Positions 15,262-47,857 of a stretch of DNA of 64,000 nt are shown here, piece after piece. How positions within the stretch are numbered: position 1 is the first letter of the stretch; each line of letters starts with the position of its first letter. The notes below the pieces were generated by a model. That model searched no databases. It was not told where the DNA came from and saw only the letters and a program-made list of their open reading frames with translations. This DNA is from an uncultured Bacilli bacterium. Its GTDB lineage: Bacteria; Bacillota_I; Bacilli_A; RF39; UBA660. Location of the stretch: the NCBI GenBank assembly GCA_934131175.1, contig CAKOZD010000001.1, positions 32,928 to 96,927 on the forward strand, given 5' to 3'. The position numbers and the translations under genes are program-made.

Positions 15262-16782
15262 TTACTTTGTAGTATCAATTCTCATAAATAATGGAGATGG
15301 TTGACCTAAAGAATAATTATTATCATCTAAATAACTAAAATCTTTTTTATCATTTGATAATTGGTTAAGTATTTTATCACTAGTGTCAGTTAAGAATGGT
15401 GCTAGGAAAACTGCACATACTCTAATAGCTTCTAATAAATTATATAAAACAGTTTCAAGTCTATCTTTTAAAGCCTCATCCTTAGCAAGAACCCATGGAG
15501 TAGTTTCATCTATATACTTATTACTTAATCTTAATAAATTAAATATTTCAGTAATAGCATCACAAATTTGTAATTTATCCATCTTTTCAGTTACTTTACT
15601 ATCTAAATTATTAATATTCATAATAAAGTCTGCATCAATATCATCATATACTTTCTTATTAGTAACTTTTCCATCAAAATATTTATTTGCCATAGAAATA
15701 GTTCTTTGAACTAAATTTCCTAAAATATTAGCAAGATCACCATTTATTCTTTCAATTAATAAATCTTTTGAGAAAACACCATCACTTGCAAATGGAATTT
15801 CATGTAAGAAATAATATCTAACAGCATCTACACCAAATTCATTAACTAAATAATCTGCATATAAAACATTTCCTTTTGATTTACTCATCTTTCCATCACT
15901 CATTATAACCCAAGGATGTCCAAATACTTGTTTAGGTAATGGTAAATCTAAACTCATCAAGAAACATGGCCAATAAATAGTATGGAATCTAATAATATCT
16001 TTACCAATTACATGAATGTCAGCTGGCCAATATTTCTTAAACATGTCAGTTTGACTATCTATATCATATCCGATATTAGTAATATAATTTGTCAATGCAT
16101 CAAGCCAAACATAAACTACATGCTTAGGATCAAAATCCACTGGTATTCCCCAACTAAATGATGTACGTGAAACACATAAATCTTGTAATCCAGGTTTAAT
16201 AAAATTATTAATCATTTCATTTTTTCTTGCGGCAGGTTGAATAAACTCAGGATGTTCTTCAATGTATTTTTCAAGTCTATCTTGATATTTACTTAATTTA
16301 AAGAAGTATGCTTCCTCACATTTTTCTTCAACATCACGTCCACAATCAGGACATTTATCATCTACTAATTGACTTTCTGTCCAAAAAGATTCACAAGGAG
16401 TACAGTATAATCCTTTATATTCTCCTTTGTAAATATCCCCTTTATCATACATATATTTAAAAATATGTTGTACTACTTTTTCATGATTTTCATCTGTAGT
16501 TCTAACAAATTTATCATAACTTGTGTTCATAATATCCCAAATATTTTTAATTTCACTTGAAACATTATCAACAAATTCCTTAGGACTTATACCAGCTTCT
16601 TTTGCTTTAATCTCTATTTTCTCACCATGTTCATCAGTACCAGTTTGAAAATAAACATCATATCCTTTTAATCTTTTAAATCTAGCAATTGCATCAGAAA
16701 GAACTATCTCATAAGTATTACCAATATGAGGCTTTCCTGAAGTATATGCAATAGCTGTTGAAATATAAAATTTTTCTTTCAT
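15262..16782 (-). CDS. metG: Methionine--tRNA ligase (short form)
   Basis: 506 aa. HIGN motif (PHIGNTYE), KMSKS motif, CxxC zinc knuckles. RBS ggaggg upstream. Confidence 0.93.
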   Translation of the reverse strand: MKEKFYISTAIAYTSGKPHIGNTYEIVLSDAIARFKRLKGYDVYFQTGTDEHGEKIEIKAKEAGISPKEFVDNVSSEIKNIWDIMNTSYDKFVRTTDENHEKVVQHIFKYMYDKGDIYKGEYKGLYCTPCESFWTESQLVDDKCPDCGRDVEEKCEEAYFFKLSKYQDRLEKYIEEHPEFIQPAARKNEMINNFIKPGLQDLCVSRTSFSWGIPVDFDPKHVVYVWLDALTNYITNIGYDIDSQTDMFKKYWPADIHVIGKDIIRFHTIYWPCFLMSLDLPLPKQVFGHPWVIMSDGKMSKSKGNVLYADYLVNEFGVDAVRYYFLHEIPFASDGVFSKDLLIERINGDLANILGNLVQRTISMANKYFDGKVTNKKVYDDIDADFIMNINNLDSKVTEKMDKLQICDAITEIFNLLRLSNKYIDETTPWVLAKDEALKDRLETVLYNLLEAIRVCAVFLAPFLTDTSDKILNQLSNDKKDFSYLDDNNYSLGQPSPLFMRIDTTK

Positions 16783-16789
16783 AATTATC

Positions 16790-17010
16790 CCTCCAAAAAA
16801 AAATTACTATAAACATAAGGACGAACAATATCGCGGTACCACCTTATTTTATAATAATTAATATTATACACTTATATAGTTAACGCCTATCTACGTCTAT
16901 ACCTACATATCGATATAGAAGTTCAGAAGCCATACTTTTATAAAAAAATTATACTCATTTTCACCAACAGAGTTCTCTAAAATAATTTTTCTTATAAAGC
17001 TCTTCATCAA
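16790..17010 (-). promoter_or_regulatory. T-box riboswitch leader of metG (Met specifier)
   Basis: Minus strand contains the hallmark T-box sequence AAGGUGGUACCGCG (revcomp of ~16829-16846), followed by a U10 run before the metG RBS. Upstream are stem I elements: a GA/K-turn-like UGAUGAAGAGC, an AGAGA box, a candidate specifier region containing AUG-G, and an F-box-like GCGUUA. Confidence 0.6.
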
Positions 17011-17060
17011 AACATTTAAAATATGAGAATAATATAACATAAATATATTAAATTAACAAG

Positions 17061-28286: not shown

Positions 28287-28296
28287 TTAATTCCTC

Positions 28297-28386
28297 CAAA
28301 ATAAAAAGTGCACATGAAAGGAGGATCTTAAGGCTGCTATTTTCCAATCCTGACCTGTTTCAATCACTTTCATTGCACGAATACAT
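28297..28386 (-). ncRNA. ffs: Signal recognition particle RNA (small 4.5S-type)
   Basis: Minus strand reads ...GUGCAAUGAAAGUGAUUGAAACAGGUCAGGAUUGGAAAAUAGCAGCCUUAAGAUCCUCCUUUCAUGUGCAC. It contains the universally conserved domain IV elements CAGGUCAGG, a GGAA tetraloop and AGCAGCC. 5' and 3' ends pair (GUGCAAUGAAAG / CUUUCAUGUGCAC). It overlaps the listed 60-aa ORF 28287..28469, which is therefore spurious. Confidence 0.78.
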
Positions 28387-28642
28387 TGTATTATAAACTT
28401 AATAAAAAGTAAATGTTTTTTTTCTTTTTTTATAAGATAGCTGTAAAAATCTGTTATATTTCTGAACATTTTAAGTTAATTTAAAATTTTTATCTCTATA
28501 TATAACAAAAACTGTGATTTTTTTATTTTGCAATTTTTAGGTGTTAAAAGTCTTTGCATTTTTATACTTTTTGTGTTGATATTTACTTTCAATCTTCTTT
28601 ATAATCACATAATATATTAGAATATTAACTTTTGCTGTGGAA

Positions 28643-28662
28643 AATGTTTCACGTGAAACATT
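28643..28662. promoter_or_regulatory. parS: parS site 1 (perfect 16-bp TGTTTCACGTGAAACA within a 20-bp palindrome); preceded by DnaA-box-like TGTGGAAAA (28636..28644)
   Basis: aatgtttcacgtgaaacatt is a perfect palindrome matching the ParB/Spo0J parS consensus TGTTNCACGTGAAACA. Confidence 0.72.
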
Positions 28663-28821
28663 AAAAAATTAAATTTAATTAATACATAGTGCATATATTT
28701 GAATTAATAGTTTTGAAATAAATAAAAACAAAGAAAAGCGCTTATATTATACTCGAAAAAAGTTAATTAAACTTTTATATTTAATAAACATTAGTAACTT
28801 ATAAACTTAACCTGTGAATAG

Positions 28822-28841
28822 AATGTTTCACGTGAAACATT
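28822..28841. promoter_or_regulatory. parS: parS site 2 (perfect TGTTTCACGTGAAACA); preceded by DnaA-box-like TGTGAATAG (28813..28821)
   Basis: Identical 20-bp palindrome to site 1. Confidence 0.72.
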
Positions 28842-28948
28842 GAAAGTTGAAAAAAAAAACACATCTTAACATTAATAAAATATCTACTATATTAATAAAG
28901 ATTTATATAATTTAATCTATCATTTATAAACTTTTATTGTGGAAAAAA

Positions 28949-28964
28949 GTTTCACGTGAAACTA
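28949..28964. promoter_or_regulatory. parS: parS site 3 (variant AGTTTCACGTGAAACT, 14/16 to consensus, still palindromic); preceded by TGTGGAAAA (28938..28946)
   Basis: 16-bp perfect palindrome agtttcacgtgaaact with the same 5' flank architecture as sites 1 and 2. Confidence 0.55.
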
Positions 28965-28996
28965 TTACAATATTTAACTTTTTCTGTGAATAAAAT

Positions 28997-29010
28997 ATTT
29001 CCTGGGAAAT
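28997..29010. promoter_or_regulatory. Noc-binding-site-like palindrome ATTTCCTGGGAAAT (13/14 to NBS consensus); preceded by TGTGAATAA (28985..28993)
   Basis: Matches the NBS consensus ATTTCCCGGGAAAT except for C7T. Same flank unit as the parS copies. Confidence 0.45.
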
Positions 29011-29174
29011 AATTTTAAAATTTACATATTTTTACAAATAAATAACTAAATTTTATTAAATAAATGAATAAAAATTAAAAAATGCATTCTCGTAAATTTA
29101 GATTATATATTATTCATCTATTAATTCTTAAATTTATTAGAATGCATTTTGCAAATTGTTAATATTTCCCAAAT

Positions 29175-29190
29175 TATTTCCCGGGAAATA
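29175..29190. promoter_or_regulatory. Noc-binding site (perfect 16-mer TATTTCCCGGGAAATA inside a 24-bp palindrome, 29171..29194), with an extra half-site ATATTTCCC at 29163..29170
   Basis: Perfect match to the published B. subtilis NBS consensus. Lies 25 nt downstream of the gyrA stop. Confidence 0.6.
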
Positions 29191-29217
29191 ATTTTAATTG
29201 TTGAAAAAAAGAAGAGA

Positions 29218-31683
29218 TTATTTCTCTTCCTCTATTTCTTGATTTTCGTTATCTAAATTTTCTTCTATATTTTCCTTTTCTACTAAAGCAACAGTTGTAA
29301 CTTTTTGATTATCTTTTAAGTTCATTAATCTAACACCTTGAGTTGCTCTCTTCAAAGTAGATACTTGTTCAAGTGGTAATTTAATAATTATGCCACTATC
29401 TGTCATTATCATTAAATCTAATTGTTCATCAGGTGCTAATGTTTTTAATGAAACCATACTACCATTTTTATCTGTAATATTAAGTGCTTTAACACCCTTA
29501 CTACCTCTATGAGTTAATCTGTATTCATCAATAACTGTTTGTTTTCCATAACCATTTTCTGTAACAATTAATACCATTTGGTTTGGTTCTACAACTTCTG
29601 CACCTACAACTATAGCTCCGTCTAATTCCATACCTTTTACACCAGAACTACTTCTTCCCATAGATCTAACTTCGTTTTCATCGAATCTTACCATACGTCC
29701 ATTGCTTGCTCCTATGACAATTTCATTTTTTCCACAAGTCTTTTTAACACTTATAAGTTCGTCGTTTTCCTTTAAAACTATAGCAATTTTTCCACCTTTA
29801 CGAATACTATCAAATTCTTCTATTGGTGTACGTTTTACAATACCATTCTTAGTAGCAAACATTAAGAACTTAGTAGAATCATCATCTTGTTTTACACTTA
29901 ACATCGAACTAATGTTCTCATCTTTCTCTAATGGTAATAAATTAATTATTGGTAAACCTTTAGATTGTCTTGAGAATTCTGGAACTTCATAACCTTTCAT
30001 TCTATAAACTCTTCCTTTATTTGAGAAGAATAAAAGATAATCATGTGTATTCATTGATAATATTTTTTCCACAAAGTCTTCTTCATTAGTAGACATACCT
30101 TTAATACCAACTCCACCCCTATTTTGAGTTTTGTAAGTATCAGCTCTTAATCTCTTTATATAACCATTATTAGTTAAGTTAATAATTATATCCTCTTCTG
30201 GAATTAAAGACTCATCTTCTATATATTCTATTGCTGTCATATCTATATTTGTACGTCTCTCATCACCATATTTTTGCTTTATTTCTAATAATTCATTTTT
30301 AATAACTTCTAATATTTTTTCATCACTAGCTAAAATTGATTTTAATTCAGCAATTGTTTTTAATAATTCATTTAACTCATTTTCAATCTTATCTCTTTCT
30401 AATCCAGTTAAACGACGTAATTTCATTTCAAGAATTGCATTAGCTTGAATTTCAGTTAATCCAAATCCATCCATTAATCCTTTTCTAGCTTCTTCATCTG
30501 ATTTAGAACCTCTAATCACTTTAATAACAGCATCAATATTATCTAAAGCTATTTTTAAACCTTCTAATATATGTACTCTCTTTTCAGCAACATCTAAATC
30601 AAATTTTGTTCTTCTTATTATAACTTCTTTCTGATAATCAATATATTTTACAATTATATCCTTTAAACCTAATGTTTTTGGAACACCTTGATCAAGCATC
30701 AAGAAAATAATTCCATAAGATGTTTGAAATGCAGTATGTTTATATAATTTATTTAAAACAACTTGTGCATTTGCATCTCTTTTTAATGTAATTGTTATTT
30801 TAATACCATTTTTTAAGTCTGAATGATAATCAGCAATACCTTCAATAGTCTTATTATGAACTAACTCAGCAACTTTATTTTTTAATTCTAAAGTATTAAC
30901 ACCATATGGAACTTCATCAATTATAATTTGTTGTTTTCCATTTTGTTCTTCAATAGTAGCCTTACTTCTAATAGTAATACTACCTCTACCTGTTTCATAT
31001 GCTTTTCTAATACCACTATTACCTAGAATAGTTGCTCCTGTTGGAAAATCTGGTCCTTTAATATATTTCATCAAACCATCTAAATCAATATCAGGATTAT
31101 CAATATATGCTACGCAACCATCTATAACTTCACCTAAATTATGAGGCGGTATATTAGTTGCCATACCAACTGCAATACCAGTAGTTCCATTAACTAAAAT
31201 ATTAGGAAATCTAGAAGGTAAAACTTCAGGTTCTCTTTCACTCTCATCAAAGTTAGGAGTAAAATTAACAGTATCTTTATTTATATTTCTTAATAATTCT
31301 AGTGATATTTTAGAAAGTCTTGATTCTGTATAACGCATTGCAGCAGCACCATAACCTTCAATATTACCAAAATTACCATGTCCATCAACAAGCATATATC
31401 TGTAAGAAAAATCTTGTGCCATTCTTACCATTGCTTCATAAATTGAAGAATCACCATGTGGATGATATTTACCCATAACGTCTCCAACTATTCTAGCGCT
31501 CTTTTTATGAGGTTTATCTGGTGTATAACCTGATTCATACATAGAATATAAAATTCGTCTGTGAACGGGCTTTAAACCATCTCTAAGGTCAGGTAGAGCA
31601 CGAGCAACAATAACACTCATTGAATACTCTAAAAATGAATCCTGAACCTCTTTTACAATATTATTCTTTTCTAATCTATCCAT
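29218..31683 (-). CDS. gyrA: DNA gyrase subunit A
   Basis: 821 aa. Active-site Tyr region AAMRYTE, QRDR-like HPHGDSS, GyrA-box and C-terminal beta-pinwheel repeats. Confidence 0.97.
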
Positions 31684-36622: not shown

Positions 36623-36745
36623 ATATTATTCCTTCTTTCTTATTTATATTTATATTATAGCTGTGGAAAAAGTTGAAAACTCAAAAATTGTCTTATTTTT
36701 CAACAAAAATGTATCCACATAACCTGTGGAAAAACATCTTAAAAC
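36623..36745. promoter_or_regulatory. oriC: oriC part 2: dnaA-dnaN intergenic DnaA-box cluster
   Basis: DnaA boxes are TGTGGAAAA at 36662..36670, TATCCACA at 36712..36719 and TGTGGAAAA at 36725..36733. Confidence 0.7.
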
Positions 36746-38173
36746 TCACATGTTTTTCACAACCCCAATATCTTTCTTTAATTTTTCTATTATATTAGCT
36801 AAATCTTTATTAACTTTAATTTCATTTTCAATTTTTTCAACCGAATGCATTACTGTAGAATGGTCTTTGCCACCAAATTCCGTACCAATCTTAGGAAAAC
36901 TCTCATTTGTCATTACTCTACATAAATACATAGCAATTTGCCGTGGAAAAGAAATATTTGAACTTCTCTTTTTACTTCTTATGTCATCAACTGTAATTTG
37001 GAAATATTCAGATACTATTTTTTGTATTCTATGAATATCATTTTTCTCCCCTATTCCTTTACTAATAAAGTCTTTCAAAGCATCAATTGCTAAATCAAGA
37101 TTAATTTTTTCTTTTCCCATAATAGTTGAATATGCAATTAATCTAGTAATAGAACCTTCTAGATTTCTAACATCTGGTCCTATATTTGATGCAATATACT
37201 CTATTACATCATCTGGTATTTCTTGCTCAACGTTTTCTGCAACTATTTTTTTCTTTAAAATTTCCATTCTAAGTGAGAAATCTGGTGGGAATATATTAAC
37301 CGTTAATCCCCAGCAAAACCTTGTCCTTAAACGATCTTCTAGTAATTTTAAATCATCAGGAGATCTATCTGATGAAATAATGATTTGCTTATTATCATTA
37401 TATAAATTATTAAATGTATGGAAAAATTCTTGTTGTGATTGCGTTGCTCCTCCTAAAAATTGAATATCATCGATTAGTAAAACATCTATATTTCTATATT
37501 TATCTTTAAAGAAATCAACGTAATTAAAATTAGTTCCTTTATCATCTTTTCTTGTGGATTTTACAAATTCTTCTCTAAATTGTTCGCTTGTAACATAAAG
37601 GACTCTTTTATCAGAATTTTCAACTATATAGTTTCCTATAGCATGCATTAAATGTGTCTTCCCTAACCCACTATTTCCAAATAGAAATAAAGGATTATAT
37701 ATTTTTCCAGGGTTTTCTGCTACAGAAAGTGCAGCTGCTCTTGCGAATTTGTTTGTATTTCCTACAATAAAATTATCAAAAGTATAGTTTTTCTTTAAAT
37801 TAGAATTAATATTAAATTGTTTATTAGGTGGTGATTTATCTTCTAATTTTTTCTTTTCTTCTAGCATTTCTTTTTCAACTATAATTGTGGATATTTCTTC
37901 TTCTAATAAAAACAAAAGTTCATATGAAGAATCAGTTAATTCATTTAGTTTGCTAGATATTGTCTCATAATAATTCTCTTGTAAATGTTTTTTGTGAATT
38001 GGCATAGGAACTATTATATAAGCTTTTTCATCTTTTAGTTCATATAATTTGGTTTCCTTAAACCAGGTTTGATAAGAGATGGATGAGATTTCATCTTTTA
38101 TTTGTTCAAGTATTTTAGACCATAAAATATCTACATTCAAGTTACCATCTCCCCATAAGTAATAATCAATCAA
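36746..38173 (-). CDS. dnaA: Chromosomal replication initiator DnaA
   Basis: 475 aa. AAA+ Walker A GNSGLGKTHL. C-terminal DNA-binding signature (KKRSSNISFPRQIAMYLCR). Confidence 0.97.
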   Translation of the reverse strand: MIDYYLWGDGNLNVDILWSKILEQIKDEISSISYQTWFKETKLYELKDEKAYIIVPMPIHKKHLQENYYETISSKLNELTDSSYELLFLLEEEISTIIVEKEMLEEKKKLEDKSPPNKQFNINSNLKKNYTFDNFIVGNTNKFARAAALSVAENPGKIYNPLFLFGNSGLGKTHLMHAIGNYIVENSDKRVLYVTSEQFREEFVKSTRKDDKGTNFNYVDFFKDKYRNIDVLLIDDIQFLGGATQSQQEFFHTFNNLYNDNKQIIISSDRSPDDLKLLEDRLRTRFCWGLTVNIFPPDFSLRMEILKKKIVAENVEQEIPDDVIEYIASNIGPDVRNLEGSITRLIAYSTIMGKEKINLDLAIDALKDFISKGIGEKNDIHRIQKIVSEYFQITVDDIRSKKRSSNISFPRQIAMYLCRVMTNESFPKIGTEFGGKDHSTVMHSVEKIENEIKVNKDLANIIEKLKKDIGVVKNM

Positions 38174-38583
38174 ACCTATTCTACATTAAAATAATTAAAA
38201 ATGAAAGTAAAAAAACATAAAAAAAACAAATTAATTTTGTAGATTAAATTTGATGTGTCGATATATACAATAACATATTTTTTCATTTTATTAAATAAAA
38301 AAATAATTAAATTTTTTTTAGTACAAAATTAGGGTACTTTTCAACATAATTTTACACTTCAAAAAAATCAAAAAAATAGCATTCGACATTTTCCACCAAT
38401 ATTCCACAAAGTTTTCAACAATTGAAGTGTATATATAATAAGGATAAAAATAAGTTTTCCACATTTTCCACAGAAAAGTTATTAATAGGGTATAAAAAAG
38501 TTTTAAACAAACTTGTGGAAATTGTTAATAACTAAAAAAATAATTAAAATAAATTAAAAAAAGAATAAATTAACAACTTTTAT
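38174..38583. promoter_or_regulatory. oriC: oriC part 1: DnaA-box cluster plus AT-rich unwinding region upstream of dnaA
   Basis: Box-like 9-mers are at 38389..38397 (TTTTCCACC), 38400..38408, 38455..38463 and 38464..38472 (tandem TTTTCCACA x2), and 38514..38522 (TGTGGAAAT). An extremely AT-rich stretch at 38200-38340 is the candidate DNA-unwinding element. Confidence 0.7.
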
Positions 38584-46149: not shown

Positions 46150-46947
46150 ATGGGAAAGGTTATATCGTTAGTTAATCAAAAAGGTGGAGTAGGAAAAACT
46201 ACCACAAGTATTAATCTTTCTGCATCATTAGCAGTATTAGGGAAAAGAGTTTTGTTAATAGATTTAGACCCTCAAGGAAATACAACTACTGGTGTAGGAA
46301 TAAATAAAGGAGAAATAGAAAAAAGTATATATGATGTTTTAATTGGAGAGTGTAATGCAACAGAAGCTATGATTAAAACAAAATACAAAGGATTATATGT
46401 TCTACCAGCAACAATAAATTTAGCAGGAATTGATGCTGAATTATTAGAAAAAAGTAGAACACAAAATGGATTTAAAAAAGGTGAACAATTAAAAAATAGT
46501 TTAGCAGACCTAAAGGATAGTTTTGACTATATTATAATAGATTGTCCACCATCTCTAGGTGTAATTACAACCAATGCGTTAACAGCATCAAACTCAGTAA
46601 TCATCCCCGTACAATGTGAATTCTTTGCATTAGAGGGAATTACTCAGTTATTAAAAACAATAATGTTGGCTCAAAAAGGATTAAATCCAACATTAGATAT
46701 AGAAGGGGTACTATTGACTATGTTAGATTCAAGAACAAATCTTGGGTTTGAAGTTGTAGAAGATATAAGAAGATTCTTTAAGGAAAAAGTATATAATACA
46801 ATAATACCAAGACTTGTAAGATTAACAGAAGCTCCATCTCATGGAGAACCAATAGTAGCATATGACCCAAAAAGTAGAGGGTCAGAAGCCTATATCAATC
46901 TAGCAAAGGAAGTGATTGAAAGAAATGAAGGAAATGGAAATAAATAA
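46150..46947 (+). CDS. soj: Chromosome partitioning ATPase ParA/Soj
   Basis: Deviant Walker A KGGVGKTT. 265 aa. Confidence 0.93.
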   Translation: MGKVISLVNQKGGVGKTTTSINLSASLAVLGKRVLLIDLDPQGNTTTGVGINKGEIEKSIYDVLIGECNATEAMIKTKYKGLYVLPATINLAGIDAELLEKSRTQNGFKKGEQLKNSLADLKDSFDYIIIDCPPSLGVITTNALTASNSVIIPVQCEFFALEGITQLLKTIMLAQKGLNPTLDIEGVLLTMLDSRTNLGFEVVEDIRRFFKEKVYNTIIPRLVRLTEAPSHGEPIVAYDPKSRGSEAYINLAKEVIERNEGNGNK

Positions 46948-47857
46948 TATTCATGAAAATGAACACGAAGGAGAAATACCTAAAAGAAGAGCGTTAGGAA
47001 GAGGTTTGGAAGAATTATTTAGTAGTGAAGTACTTGATTATAGTTCAGTTGAAAAACAAATTGTAGAAGAAACATCAAAAGATGAAATAGTAAACATAAA
47101 ATTAAGTGAACTTAGAAGTAATCCATATCAGCCAAGAAAAATTTTTGATGAAAAAGCTTTGGAAGAACTTGCTAATTCAATTAAAGAACATGGCGTTTTC
47201 CAACCAATAATTGTAAAAAAATCAATTAAAGGCTATGAAATAATAGCAGGTGAGCGAAGAGTTAAAGCATCACTTATGGCAGGGTTAACAGAAATTCCAG
47301 CAATTGTTAGAGATTTTAATGATACTCAGATGATGGAGATTGCTTTACTTGAAAACTTACAAAGAGAAAACTTAACAGCTATAGAAGAAGCCAATGCTTA
47401 TAAAAAATTACAAGATACTCTTGGTTTGACACAAGAACAATTAGCAAATAGACTTGGAAAAAGTAGAAGTCATGTAACTAATATGTTAGGTCTTCTAAAT
47501 TTACCAGAAACAATCCAAAGTGATATAAATGATAAAAAAATCACTATGGGACATGCAAGAGTTCTAAGTAAATTACAAGATAAAGTACAACAAGCAGAAT
47601 TAGAAGAAAAAGTAATTTCAGAAGGAATGAGTGTTAGAGAATTAGAAGAATTAACACAAGCTCCAAAAATAATAAAAACAAACCCACAGAAACCAAAAAT
47701 AAGAGAAAATAATGAATATAGTTACTTACAAGAGGAGTTAAGTGAAAAATTAGGAACAAAAGTTATAGTTAAGAAAAATAAATTAGAAATAAGTTTTGTT
47801 AATGGAAATGATTTAAATAGACTATTAGAATTAATGCATATAGAGGTTGGAAAGTAA
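46916..47857 (+). CDS. spo0J: Chromosome partitioning protein ParB/Spo0J
   Basis: RALGRGLEELF, NPYQPRK and GERR motifs. The recognition helix GKSRSHVTNMLGLL has Spo0J-type specificity residues (Arg retained). Confidence 0.92.
   Translation: MKEMKEMEINNIHENEHEGEIPKRRALGRGLEELFSSEVLDYSSVEKQIVEETSKDEIVNIKLSELRSNPYQPRKIFDEKALEELANSIKEHGVFQPIIVKKSIKGYEIIAGERRVKASLMAGLTEIPAIVRDFNDTQMMEIALLENLQRENLTAIEEANAYKKLQDTLGLTQEQLANRLGKSRSHVTNMLGLLNLPETIQSDINDKKITMGHARVLSKLQDKVQQAELEEKVISEGMSVRELEELTQAPKIIKTNPQKPKIRENNEYSYLQEELSEKLGTKVIVKKNKLEISFVNGNDLNRLLELMHIEVGK

Follow-up and report, generated by a model that had tools for sequence, protein, structure and literature searches.

The 64,000-nucleotide stretch analysed here (hereafter the window) comes from an uncultured gut Bacilli bacterium of the UBA660 lineage (GTDB order RF39), has a GC content of ~26% and includes a chromosomal origin of replication, oriC. 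Read along the minus strand, the genes are, in order, dnaA (36746-38173), dnaN, recF, gyrB, gyrA (29218-31683), a non-coding gap, the small signal recognition particle RNA gene ffs, tadA and dnaX. The plus strand carries rsmG, a parB paralogue resembling noc, soj and spo0J. The GC skew of the window switches sign at ~38 kb, where dnaA and the DnaA boxes sit. The subject of this analysis is the gap between gyrA and ffs, an origin-proximal region lying 7.5-9.5 kb from oriC, in which three parS palindromes and two palindromic Noc-binding sites (NBS) are packed into 546 bp.

The presence of three parS and two NBS in this gap had been claimed in an earlier note on this DNA and was confirmed by a motif scan of the window. 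The coordinates given there hold for four of the sites, while those of parS-3 were one base too high, the true position being 28948-28963. The length of the gap had been put at 750 bp and was measured as 828 bp. At up to two mismatches, dinucleotide-preserving shuffles gave an expectation of 0.08 parS matches per window versus the three palindromes seen, each of them counted on both strands, and of 0.15 NBS matches versus the two seen. In the rest of the 64-kb window no other parS or NBS was found at this threshold, except for one unrelated two-mismatch parS match at 16159. One parS of Bacillus subtilis lies within spo0J; no parS was found inside spo0J of the window. The five sites are scattered copies of a unit of ~35 bp. 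Between the NBS unit at 28976-29009 and the parS unit at 28804-28837 the identity is 76%, which agrees with the earlier proposal that the NBS copies are derivatives of the parS unit and fits a possible interconversion of site types within duplicated units. The counterpart of NBS-1 is a perfect palindrome in loci of the same species. A search with Rfam at gathering thresholds revealed no RNA in the gap of the window or of ten relatives, neither rRNA nor any further family, except ffs at the edge, and a promoter and terminator scan of the gap showed no enrichment beyond the gyrA terminator.

Four of the five sites are flanked by a DnaA-box-like 9-mer, as the earlier note had proposed, three of them with one mismatch and one with two, and the gap between each 9-mer and its 16-bp palindrome is 0-3 nt. 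The degenerate 9-mer at 28813 belongs to the repeated unit D4, and its ATTCACA core is invariant in same-species loci. At the fifth site (29175) an NBS half-site takes the place of the box-like 9-mer. The boxes of oriC (36662, 36725, 38455 and 38464) are all of the TTTTCCACA variant that also stands beside parS-1 and parS-3, which bears out the earlier equation of the flanking 9-mer with the oriC box variant. The perfect DnaA box TTATCCACA occurs nowhere in the 64-kb window; in the close relative L002 it is found beside the parS sites. The three boxes with at most one mismatch (28636, 28938 and 28985) lie within ~360 bp, versus an expectation of ~0.1, as scaled from 22.5 per window on both strands. 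They form a cluster of oriC-type boxes outside oriC, two of the three being TTTTCCACA. The features of the window are collected in Table 1.

Table 1. Features of the window that belong to, flank or are presumed to act on the site array between gyrA and ffs.
Feature	Position	Strand	Remarks
gyrA-ffs gap	from gyrA stop 29218 to ffs 5' end 28389		828 bp, non-coding
ffs (small signal recognition particle RNA)	28295..28389	-	Rfam; one boundary of the array
gyrA intrinsic terminator	29204..29229	-	hairpin 29211-29229, then T run on the minus strand; other boundary of the array
DnaA-box-like 9-mer, TTTTCCACA (TGTGGAAAA on + strand)	28636..28644	-	one mismatch; adjoins parS-1 with no base between, on its far side from oriC
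parS-1, perfect palindrome TGTTTCACGTGAAACA	28645..28660		site closest to ffs; invariant in same-species loci
Degenerate box-like 9-mer, CTATTCACA (TGTGAATAG on + strand)	28813..28821	-	two mismatches from TTATCCACA; 2 nt from parS-2
parS-2, perfect palindrome TGTTTCACGTGAAACA	28824..28839		
DnaA-box-like 9-mer, TTTTCCACA (TGTGGAAAA on + strand)	28938..28946	-	one mismatch; 1 nt from parS-3
parS-3, AGTTTCACGTGAAACT	28948..28963		14-bp core perfect; outer bases alone deviate
DnaA-box-like 9-mer, TTATTCACA (TGTGAATAA on + strand)	28985..28993	-	one mismatch; 2 nt from 16-bp NBS-1
NBS-1, 16-bp TATTTCCTGGGAAATA	28996..29011		14-bp core ATTTCCTGGGAAAT at 28997-29010, one mismatch
NBS half-site ATTTCCC	29164..29170		5 nt from the 14-bp core of NBS-2; invariant within the species
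NBS-2, perfect TATTTCCCGGGAAATA	29175..29190		27 bp from the gyrA stop codon
oriC, dnaA-dnaN part	36623..36745	-	TTTTCCACAG boxes at 36662 and 36725
oriC, part upstream of dnaA	38380..38530	-	head-to-tail TGTGGAAAATGTGGAAAA boxes, 38455-38472
Noc-type ParB paralogue, 426 amino acids	44773..46053	+	residues Q-K-S-R; without N-terminal membrane helix; linker of ~170 amino acids; presumed NBS binder
soj/parA, ParA/MinD-family ATPase gene	46150..46947	+	named by position between two parB-family genes
spo0J/parB	46916..47857	+	R...G parS-type specificity residues; presumed parS binder

To compare the locus among relatives, these were chosen by gyrA. The protein of the window shares 99% identity with its counterpart in a gut metagenome-assembled genome labelled as an uncultured 'Mollicutes', and 80-95% with those of 79 further species. 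The relatives are labelled as Bacilli, Erysipelotrichaceae, Tenericutes, 'Mycoplasma sp. CAG:877' or Candidatus Onthousia, the last of which is placed by NCBI in Bacilli incertae sedis only. In their loci, of ~14 kb each, one mismatch was permitted in the 14-bp core when sites were called. All 49 species with a fully assembled gyrA-tadA gap have parS and/or NBS in it, and 46 have both types. The medians per species are three parS and three NBS, with a maximum of nine of each, and the arrays span 75-2046 bp, with up to 18 sites over 2 kb. The genome loci in which no sites were found come from contigs that end at most ~400 bp from gyrA. The dnaA-to-gyrA sequence of the relatives, 620 kb altogether, contains no parS or NBS at all. 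In each of the ten loci tested ffs comes after the array. Among same-species loci (gyrA protein 98-99% identical) the nucleotide identity of the gap is 84-86%, yet the palindromes and the box flanks are invariant, indicating selection on the sites and not on the spacers. Across the clade, sequence information in the flanks does not reach past the extended palindromes AATGTTTCACGTGAAACAT and AAATTATTTCCCGGGAAATAATTT, and a common flanking motif for all sites was rejected for this reason.

In addition, an unbiased scan of metagenome contigs was made with the pattern parS-N(8-38)-NBS; altogether the array was seen in some 200 relatives. The scan returned 120 contigs, in which nearly all pairs were located at gyrA, tadA or dnaX of low-GC organisms; where most of the gene was present, gyrA of these contigs was ~60% to 99% identical to that of the window. 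The same scan found no pair among viral contigs, and a mobile or viral origin of the array was rejected accordingly. The earlier note had also drawn attention to the fact that Bacillus carries an rRNA operon at this position. As each complete gap is at most 2.3 kb long and runs straight to ffs and tadA, the remnant or loss of an rRNA operon was rejected, and the synteny of the relatives, with no rRNA operon in the gap, makes that comparison uninformative on the origin of the array.

About a third of the genome contigs of the relatives end within or just before the array (L004, L005, L007, L012, L014, L015, L020, L027 and others). Two loci have NBS without parS. L059 (8503-9129) contains nine NBS with a period of ~75-83 bp and L052 (8587-8814) contains four, while a search allowing one mismatch found no parS in either. 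Both contigs stop within the array or shortly beyond it. Words of the form TGTGGAAAA/TGTAGAAAA stand ~12 nt upstream of each NBS in L059. In one subclade (L036 at ~10281, L046 at 10289, L068 at 10272, L076 at 10284, L103 at 5242, L152 at 3152, and others), one or two isolated NBS are located 1.8-3.7 kb past gyrA. Those of L103, L117 and L152 fall within the dnaX match or at its border, at approximately codon 350-390. No isolated NBS was found in dnaX of the window.

The arrays of many species are strictly alternating tandem arrays of parS and NBS with a species-specific period of 56-136 bp. The unit length is 56 bp in L011, 62 bp in L014, 64 bp in L023, 75 bp in L049 (nine units), 84 bp in L024, 97 bp in L016 and 136 bp in L066, and the first six of these relatives carry head-to-tail repeats that bear the palindromes, in the manner of sopC of the F plasmid. 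This sopC-like feature is absent from the window, where Tandem Repeats Finder reported no array over the sites. Across species, 276 neighbouring pairs are of unlike type versus 90 of like type. The distances between the centres of adjacent parS and NBS peak at 26, 36, 47-48, 58, 68 and 78 bp. After similar spacers had been collapsed to one, a Rayleigh test at 10.5 bp on the resulting 305 spacer clusters gave R = 0.28 and p ~2 × 10−11, with a phase of 0.49 turn. The two kinds of site are thus separated by half-integer turns and are predicted to lie on opposite faces of the helix.

The phasing was also detected at distances that the pattern of the metagenome scan did not constrain (53-125 bp; p ~6 × 10−6), in the 79 unbiased genome loci taken by themselves (n = 140, p ~7.5 × 10−7) and in a sign test per locus (40/56, p = 0.002). 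In spacers of 50-130 bp that are free of degenerate sites and half-sites it remained as well (n = 155, p ~3.5 × 10−4), so hidden degenerate sites were rejected as the source of the long-range phasing. No phasing was seen between adjacent parS-parS or NBS-NBS pairs. Sites of like type with the other type between them are separated by integer turns, as expected. The sole adjacent parS-NBS pair of the window, parS-3 and NBS-1, has its centres 48 bp (~4.6 helical turns) apart and fits the phasing. The phasing may stem from contact between the two proteins, from the avoidance of a steric clash or from the architecture of the DNA. The NBS half-site words ATTTCCC and GGGAAAT are enriched in the spacers throughout the clade, with TATTTCCC present in 48 of 189 loci. 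As in the window, a half-site beside a full NBS was also seen in L001 and many other loci.

These results bear on two explanations in which the array would have no common function. The first is that the region has no function at all, being either an artefact of assembly or a neutral minisatellite rich in AT. The copy number and the period do differ widely among species and many contigs end inside the array. However, two exact 14-bp GC-containing palindromes have been kept in hundreds of independent assemblies while the spacers diverged, and the genome encodes proteins with the matching specificity residues, so we regard this explanation as having almost no chance of being correct. The second is that an ordinary ParB/parS centromere and ordinary NBS share one permissive gap and have been co-amplified by slippage, with no functional tie between ParB and Noc. 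The gap is among the few sizeable non-coding regions near oriC, tandem duplication of a two-site unit would yield alternation automatically, and the isolated NBS within dnaX of one subclade demonstrate that NBS do occur elsewhere. On the other hand, slippage does not account well for a phasing that is confined to neighbours of unlike type and absent from those of like type, nor for the retention of both types in 46 of the 49 species despite total spacer turnover and independent amplifications of differing period. Moreover, close parS-NBS pairs are essentially limited to the gyrA-dnaX locus in the unbiased scan. Co-amplification without a functional tie therefore appears unlikely to us.

When the palindromes were masked, the most enriched 8-mers of the spacers were DnaA-box words, namely TATCCACA, present in 38 of 189 loci versus 1.0 expected, and ATCCACAG, present in 19 loci versus 0.2 expected. 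NBS half-sites and two-mismatch parS words came next. A box with at most one mismatch begins 1-3 nt past the 14-bp core in 57 distinct parS flanks and 2-5 nt past the core in 34 NBS flanks, on a background of ~0.7 per offset. Tripartite units of the form parS-AT-TGTGGATAA-AATT-NBS are found in approximately a dozen loci. Among the genome loci, 30 of the 32 boxes next to a parS are on its ffs side, which faces away from oriC. Such boxes were found in 12 species, spread across the lower half of the gyrA tree. The composite of box and palindrome recurs in separate lineages, in which most boxes are perfect TTATCCACA at a fixed offset. At the level of sequence, the comparative data therefore support the proposal of the earlier note that a DnaA box and a ParB-family site form one composite unit. 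The box itself appears to be a recurrent and positioned but facultative third component of the array.

Given these boxes, the locus could serve mainly in the titration or regulation of DnaA, like the box clusters of B. subtilis or datA of E. coli, with the palindromes being secondary. Three boxes with at most one mismatch, all assigned to the oriC variant, within ~360 bp of the window and the leading place of DnaA-box words in the spacer enrichment would be in line with such a role, and in B. subtilis oriC-proximal box clusters hold back initiation and show genetic interactions with spo0J and soj (PMC3245932). Yet any box at all is present in the array of only about a fifth to a third of the loci while the palindromes are universal, and it is the boxes that are placed relative to the palindromes, not the reverse. 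We thus consider a primary role in DnaA titration very unlikely.

Regarding the other end of the array, the last site before ffs is a parS in 40 of the 49 species (p ~1 × 10−5). In seven of the ten relatives in which ffs was mapped, this site precedes the 5' end of ffs by ~40-110 bp, compared with 255 bp in the window. With a parS so close to ffs, ParB could also influence the ffs promoter. Taken further, ParB and Noc might act at the array mainly as transcriptional regulators of ffs-tadA-dnaX, in a KorB-like manner. The array always terminates just upstream of ffs, as checked by hand in the seven relatives mentioned, and its final site is predominantly parS. Such a function is nevertheless hard to reconcile with the 255 bp that separate the nearest site from ffs in the window, with up to 18 sites across 2 kb, which is too much for promoter control, and with a promoter-like scan that revealed no enrichment. 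There is in our opinion very little probability that regulation of these genes is the main task of the array.

To get an idea of the proteins that could recognize the sites, the two ParB-family products of the window were compared with characterized homologues. Spo0J aligned best with B. subtilis Spo0J (GKSR...MGHAR). Its specificity residues are of the parS type, R173 and G201 in the numbering of Caulobacter. When compared with solved structures, the Noc-like protein matched Noc best, with 227 bits versus 180 for the best ParB. It has Q, K, S and R at Noc positions 158, 164, 169 and 186, respectively, with S and not K at position 169. NBS specificity needs only Q and R plus K at either permissive position (PMC7383237), and because one permissive lysine suffices, the combination was counted as NBS-type. 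The GERR motif of the cytidine triphosphate (CTP) pocket is present in both Spo0J and the Noc-like protein.

The Noc-like protein starts at the equivalent of Noc residue 22-24, its residues 3-4 aligning with Noc 23-24, and its open reading frame begins at the earliest possible start codon. It does not possess the N-terminal amphipathic membrane-targeting helix of Noc. In Noc this amphipathic helix, alpha-1, comprises 10 residues and is the part that attaches to the membrane; a variant without alpha-1 is impaired in nucleoid occlusion (PMC8429893). The Noc-like protein further contains a low-complexity insertion of ~170 amino acids, which is followed by a recognisable Noc C-terminal domain. A search for close homologues gave near-identical variants only, and the subfamily was sampled as the best 150 representatives at 50% clustering. 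These share the Noc-like architecture, with a median length of 463 amino acids (221-798, including a few fragments), and the PNxxQPR motif, where found, starts at a median residue of 16. The specificity pattern was matched in 112 of the 150 representatives, as Q-K-x-(R/K) in 110 and as Q-(L/T)-N-R in two, the other 38 being unmatched. The helix-less proteins with a long linker make up a distinct and diverse Noc subfamily, and the protein of the window is not a canonical Noc. Within the linker of the Noc-like protein (residues ~291-326), the motifs (V/I)D(I/V)xxIKxxAxDI, P.A(D/N)LDSLL and (K/R)F(F/I)xP are kept in ~130 diverse members; they look like docking motifs for a partner.

Based on the sites with their conservation, alternation and phasing, the adjacent boxes, the cognate residues and the missing helix, we consider it likely that the gap between gyrA and ffs is a centromere-like, composite platform near oriC for the loading of two CTP clamps plus DnaA. 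Binding would begin with Spo0J/ParB nucleating at the parS palindromes and the Noc-type paralogue at the NBS palindromes. Both proteins, which by homology are CTP-dependent clamps, would then slide to the flanking DNA, over a range that plausibly reaches oriC. Owing to the half-integer spacing and the alternation, ParB dimers and Noc dimers would occupy opposite faces of the DNA. Some lineages, that of the window among them, have oriC-type boxes adjoining the palindromes, and there DnaA is probably recruited to the same structure. Its occupancy of the array could couple the control of initiation with the partition complex, or block the sliding of the clamps on one side. As to physiological role, the helix-less Noc is probably a second centromere-binding clamp and not a classical membrane-tethered nucleoid-occlusion factor.

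One may speculate further that in this clade of gut Bacilli with reduced genomes Noc has been repurposed from a membrane-tethered division inhibitor distributed over the chromosome to a second centromere protein, and that ParB and Noc, in some lineages together with DnaA, assemble on a two-faced phased array into a loosely kinetochore-like structure that couples initiation, origin segregation and possibly division, with the linker motifs as its output. This extension is tentative, and we regard it as possible but doubtful.

Several points weigh against the loading platform. The evidence consists of sequences from uncultured organisms. The window's own species has its sites spread out at spacings of 48-179 bp without a regular tandem array, and only a single adjacent parS-NBS pair is available in the window. 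The phasing statistics are derived from kin sequences, and the clustering of spacers and the tests per locus lessen their non-independence but do not abolish it. Since the repeats cause short-read assemblies to break beside oriC, with many contigs breaking inside the array, copy numbers from metagenome-assembled genomes are unreliable. The local enrichment of the sites holds for the origin region, within the data at hand, and the array may be just one NBS locus among many. At the NBS density of B. subtilis about one site would be expected per 63 kb, so the absence of NBS from the rest of the window is weak evidence. DnaA boxes adjoin a site in ~40 of 200 loci and are not essential to the array. 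Finally, the NCBIfam model TIGR04285 scored the Noc-like protein at 288.6 bits, below the cut-off of 315, with profile positions 1-200 of 255 matched.

Apart from the array, a T-box leader (Rfam RF00230, 106 bits) was found at 16814-17019 on the minus strand of the window, upstream of an open reading frame of 506 amino acids (15262-16782). It looks ordinary.

ParB and Noc are textbook paralogous clamps that have diverged for different sites, jobs and places. Their sites being interleaved, in helical register, at one locus and throughout a clade would imply a direct physical or functional tie between the two clamps, which has not been considered before. A non-exhaustive literature search revealed no description of interleaved, phased parS/NBS arrays. 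The adjoining DnaA boxes would provide a tangible DNA substrate on which initiation and segregation could communicate, a crosstalk that has long been under discussion (Soj/Spo0J with DnaA, and Noc with DnaA), and the helix-less Noc subfamily with its long linker suggests a role of Noc beyond membrane-mediated nucleoid occlusion.

Among the closest known systems is Spo0J/parS of B. subtilis, in which approximately ten parS are scattered over hundreds of kilobases, mostly within genes. The 16-bp palindrome (TGTTNCACGTGAAACA) is identical, two perfect copies and one perfect 14-bp core being present here. Also shared are the origin-proximal position, an R/G-type ParB with a Soj partner and the gene order rsmG-noc-soj-spo0J. 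In contrast to B. subtilis, all sites of the 64 kb are collected here in one non-coding gap, of 0.3-2 kb, and the relatives have tandem arrays. In this respect the locus is reminiscent of sopC of the F plasmid, which consists of tandem repeats, each with one ParB-family palindrome. The relatives bear 4-9 head-to-tail units with 16-bp palindromes for ParB-family proteins. Unlike sopC, however, their arrays are chromosomal and have two different palindromes per unit, for two paralogues and in helical anti-phase, and the unit length depends on the species.

The NBS core (ATTTCCCGGGAAAT) is identical to that of B. subtilis and S. aureus, with one perfect copy and one single-mismatch copy in the window, and the paralogue in the noc gene position has Q158, K164, R186 (residues as defined in PMC7383237) and the CTP-pocket motifs. 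Canonical NBS are scattered around the chromosome (PMC8429893). They are concentrated in its origin-proximal two-thirds in B. subtilis, and in S. aureus 40 of the 41 loci belong to the half nearer the origin (PMC5540599). Here, in contrast, they are interleaved with parS at one locus, and the Noc-like protein differs from canonical Noc by the lack of the helix, the insertion of ~170 amino acids and S169.

As to the third component, the centromere of Caulobacter crescentus is bound by DnaA (Mera et al. 2014, as reviewed in PMC6399470). The two systems have in common DnaA boxes within the parS region, implying recruitment of the initiator to the partition complex. Caulobacter belongs to another phylum and no Noc takes part there, whereas the boxes described here lie 0-3 nt from a palindrome with a fixed polarity and are limited to some lineages. 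In S. aureus, Noc restrains DnaA-dependent initiation (PMC5540599), and the DnaA-box clusters of B. subtilis act jointly with Spo0J and Soj (PMC3245932). Like these clusters, the boxes of the array are of the oriC type and are situated outside oriC, at most ~10 kb away, but they do not form an autonomous cluster, each of them being joined to a ParB-family palindrome.

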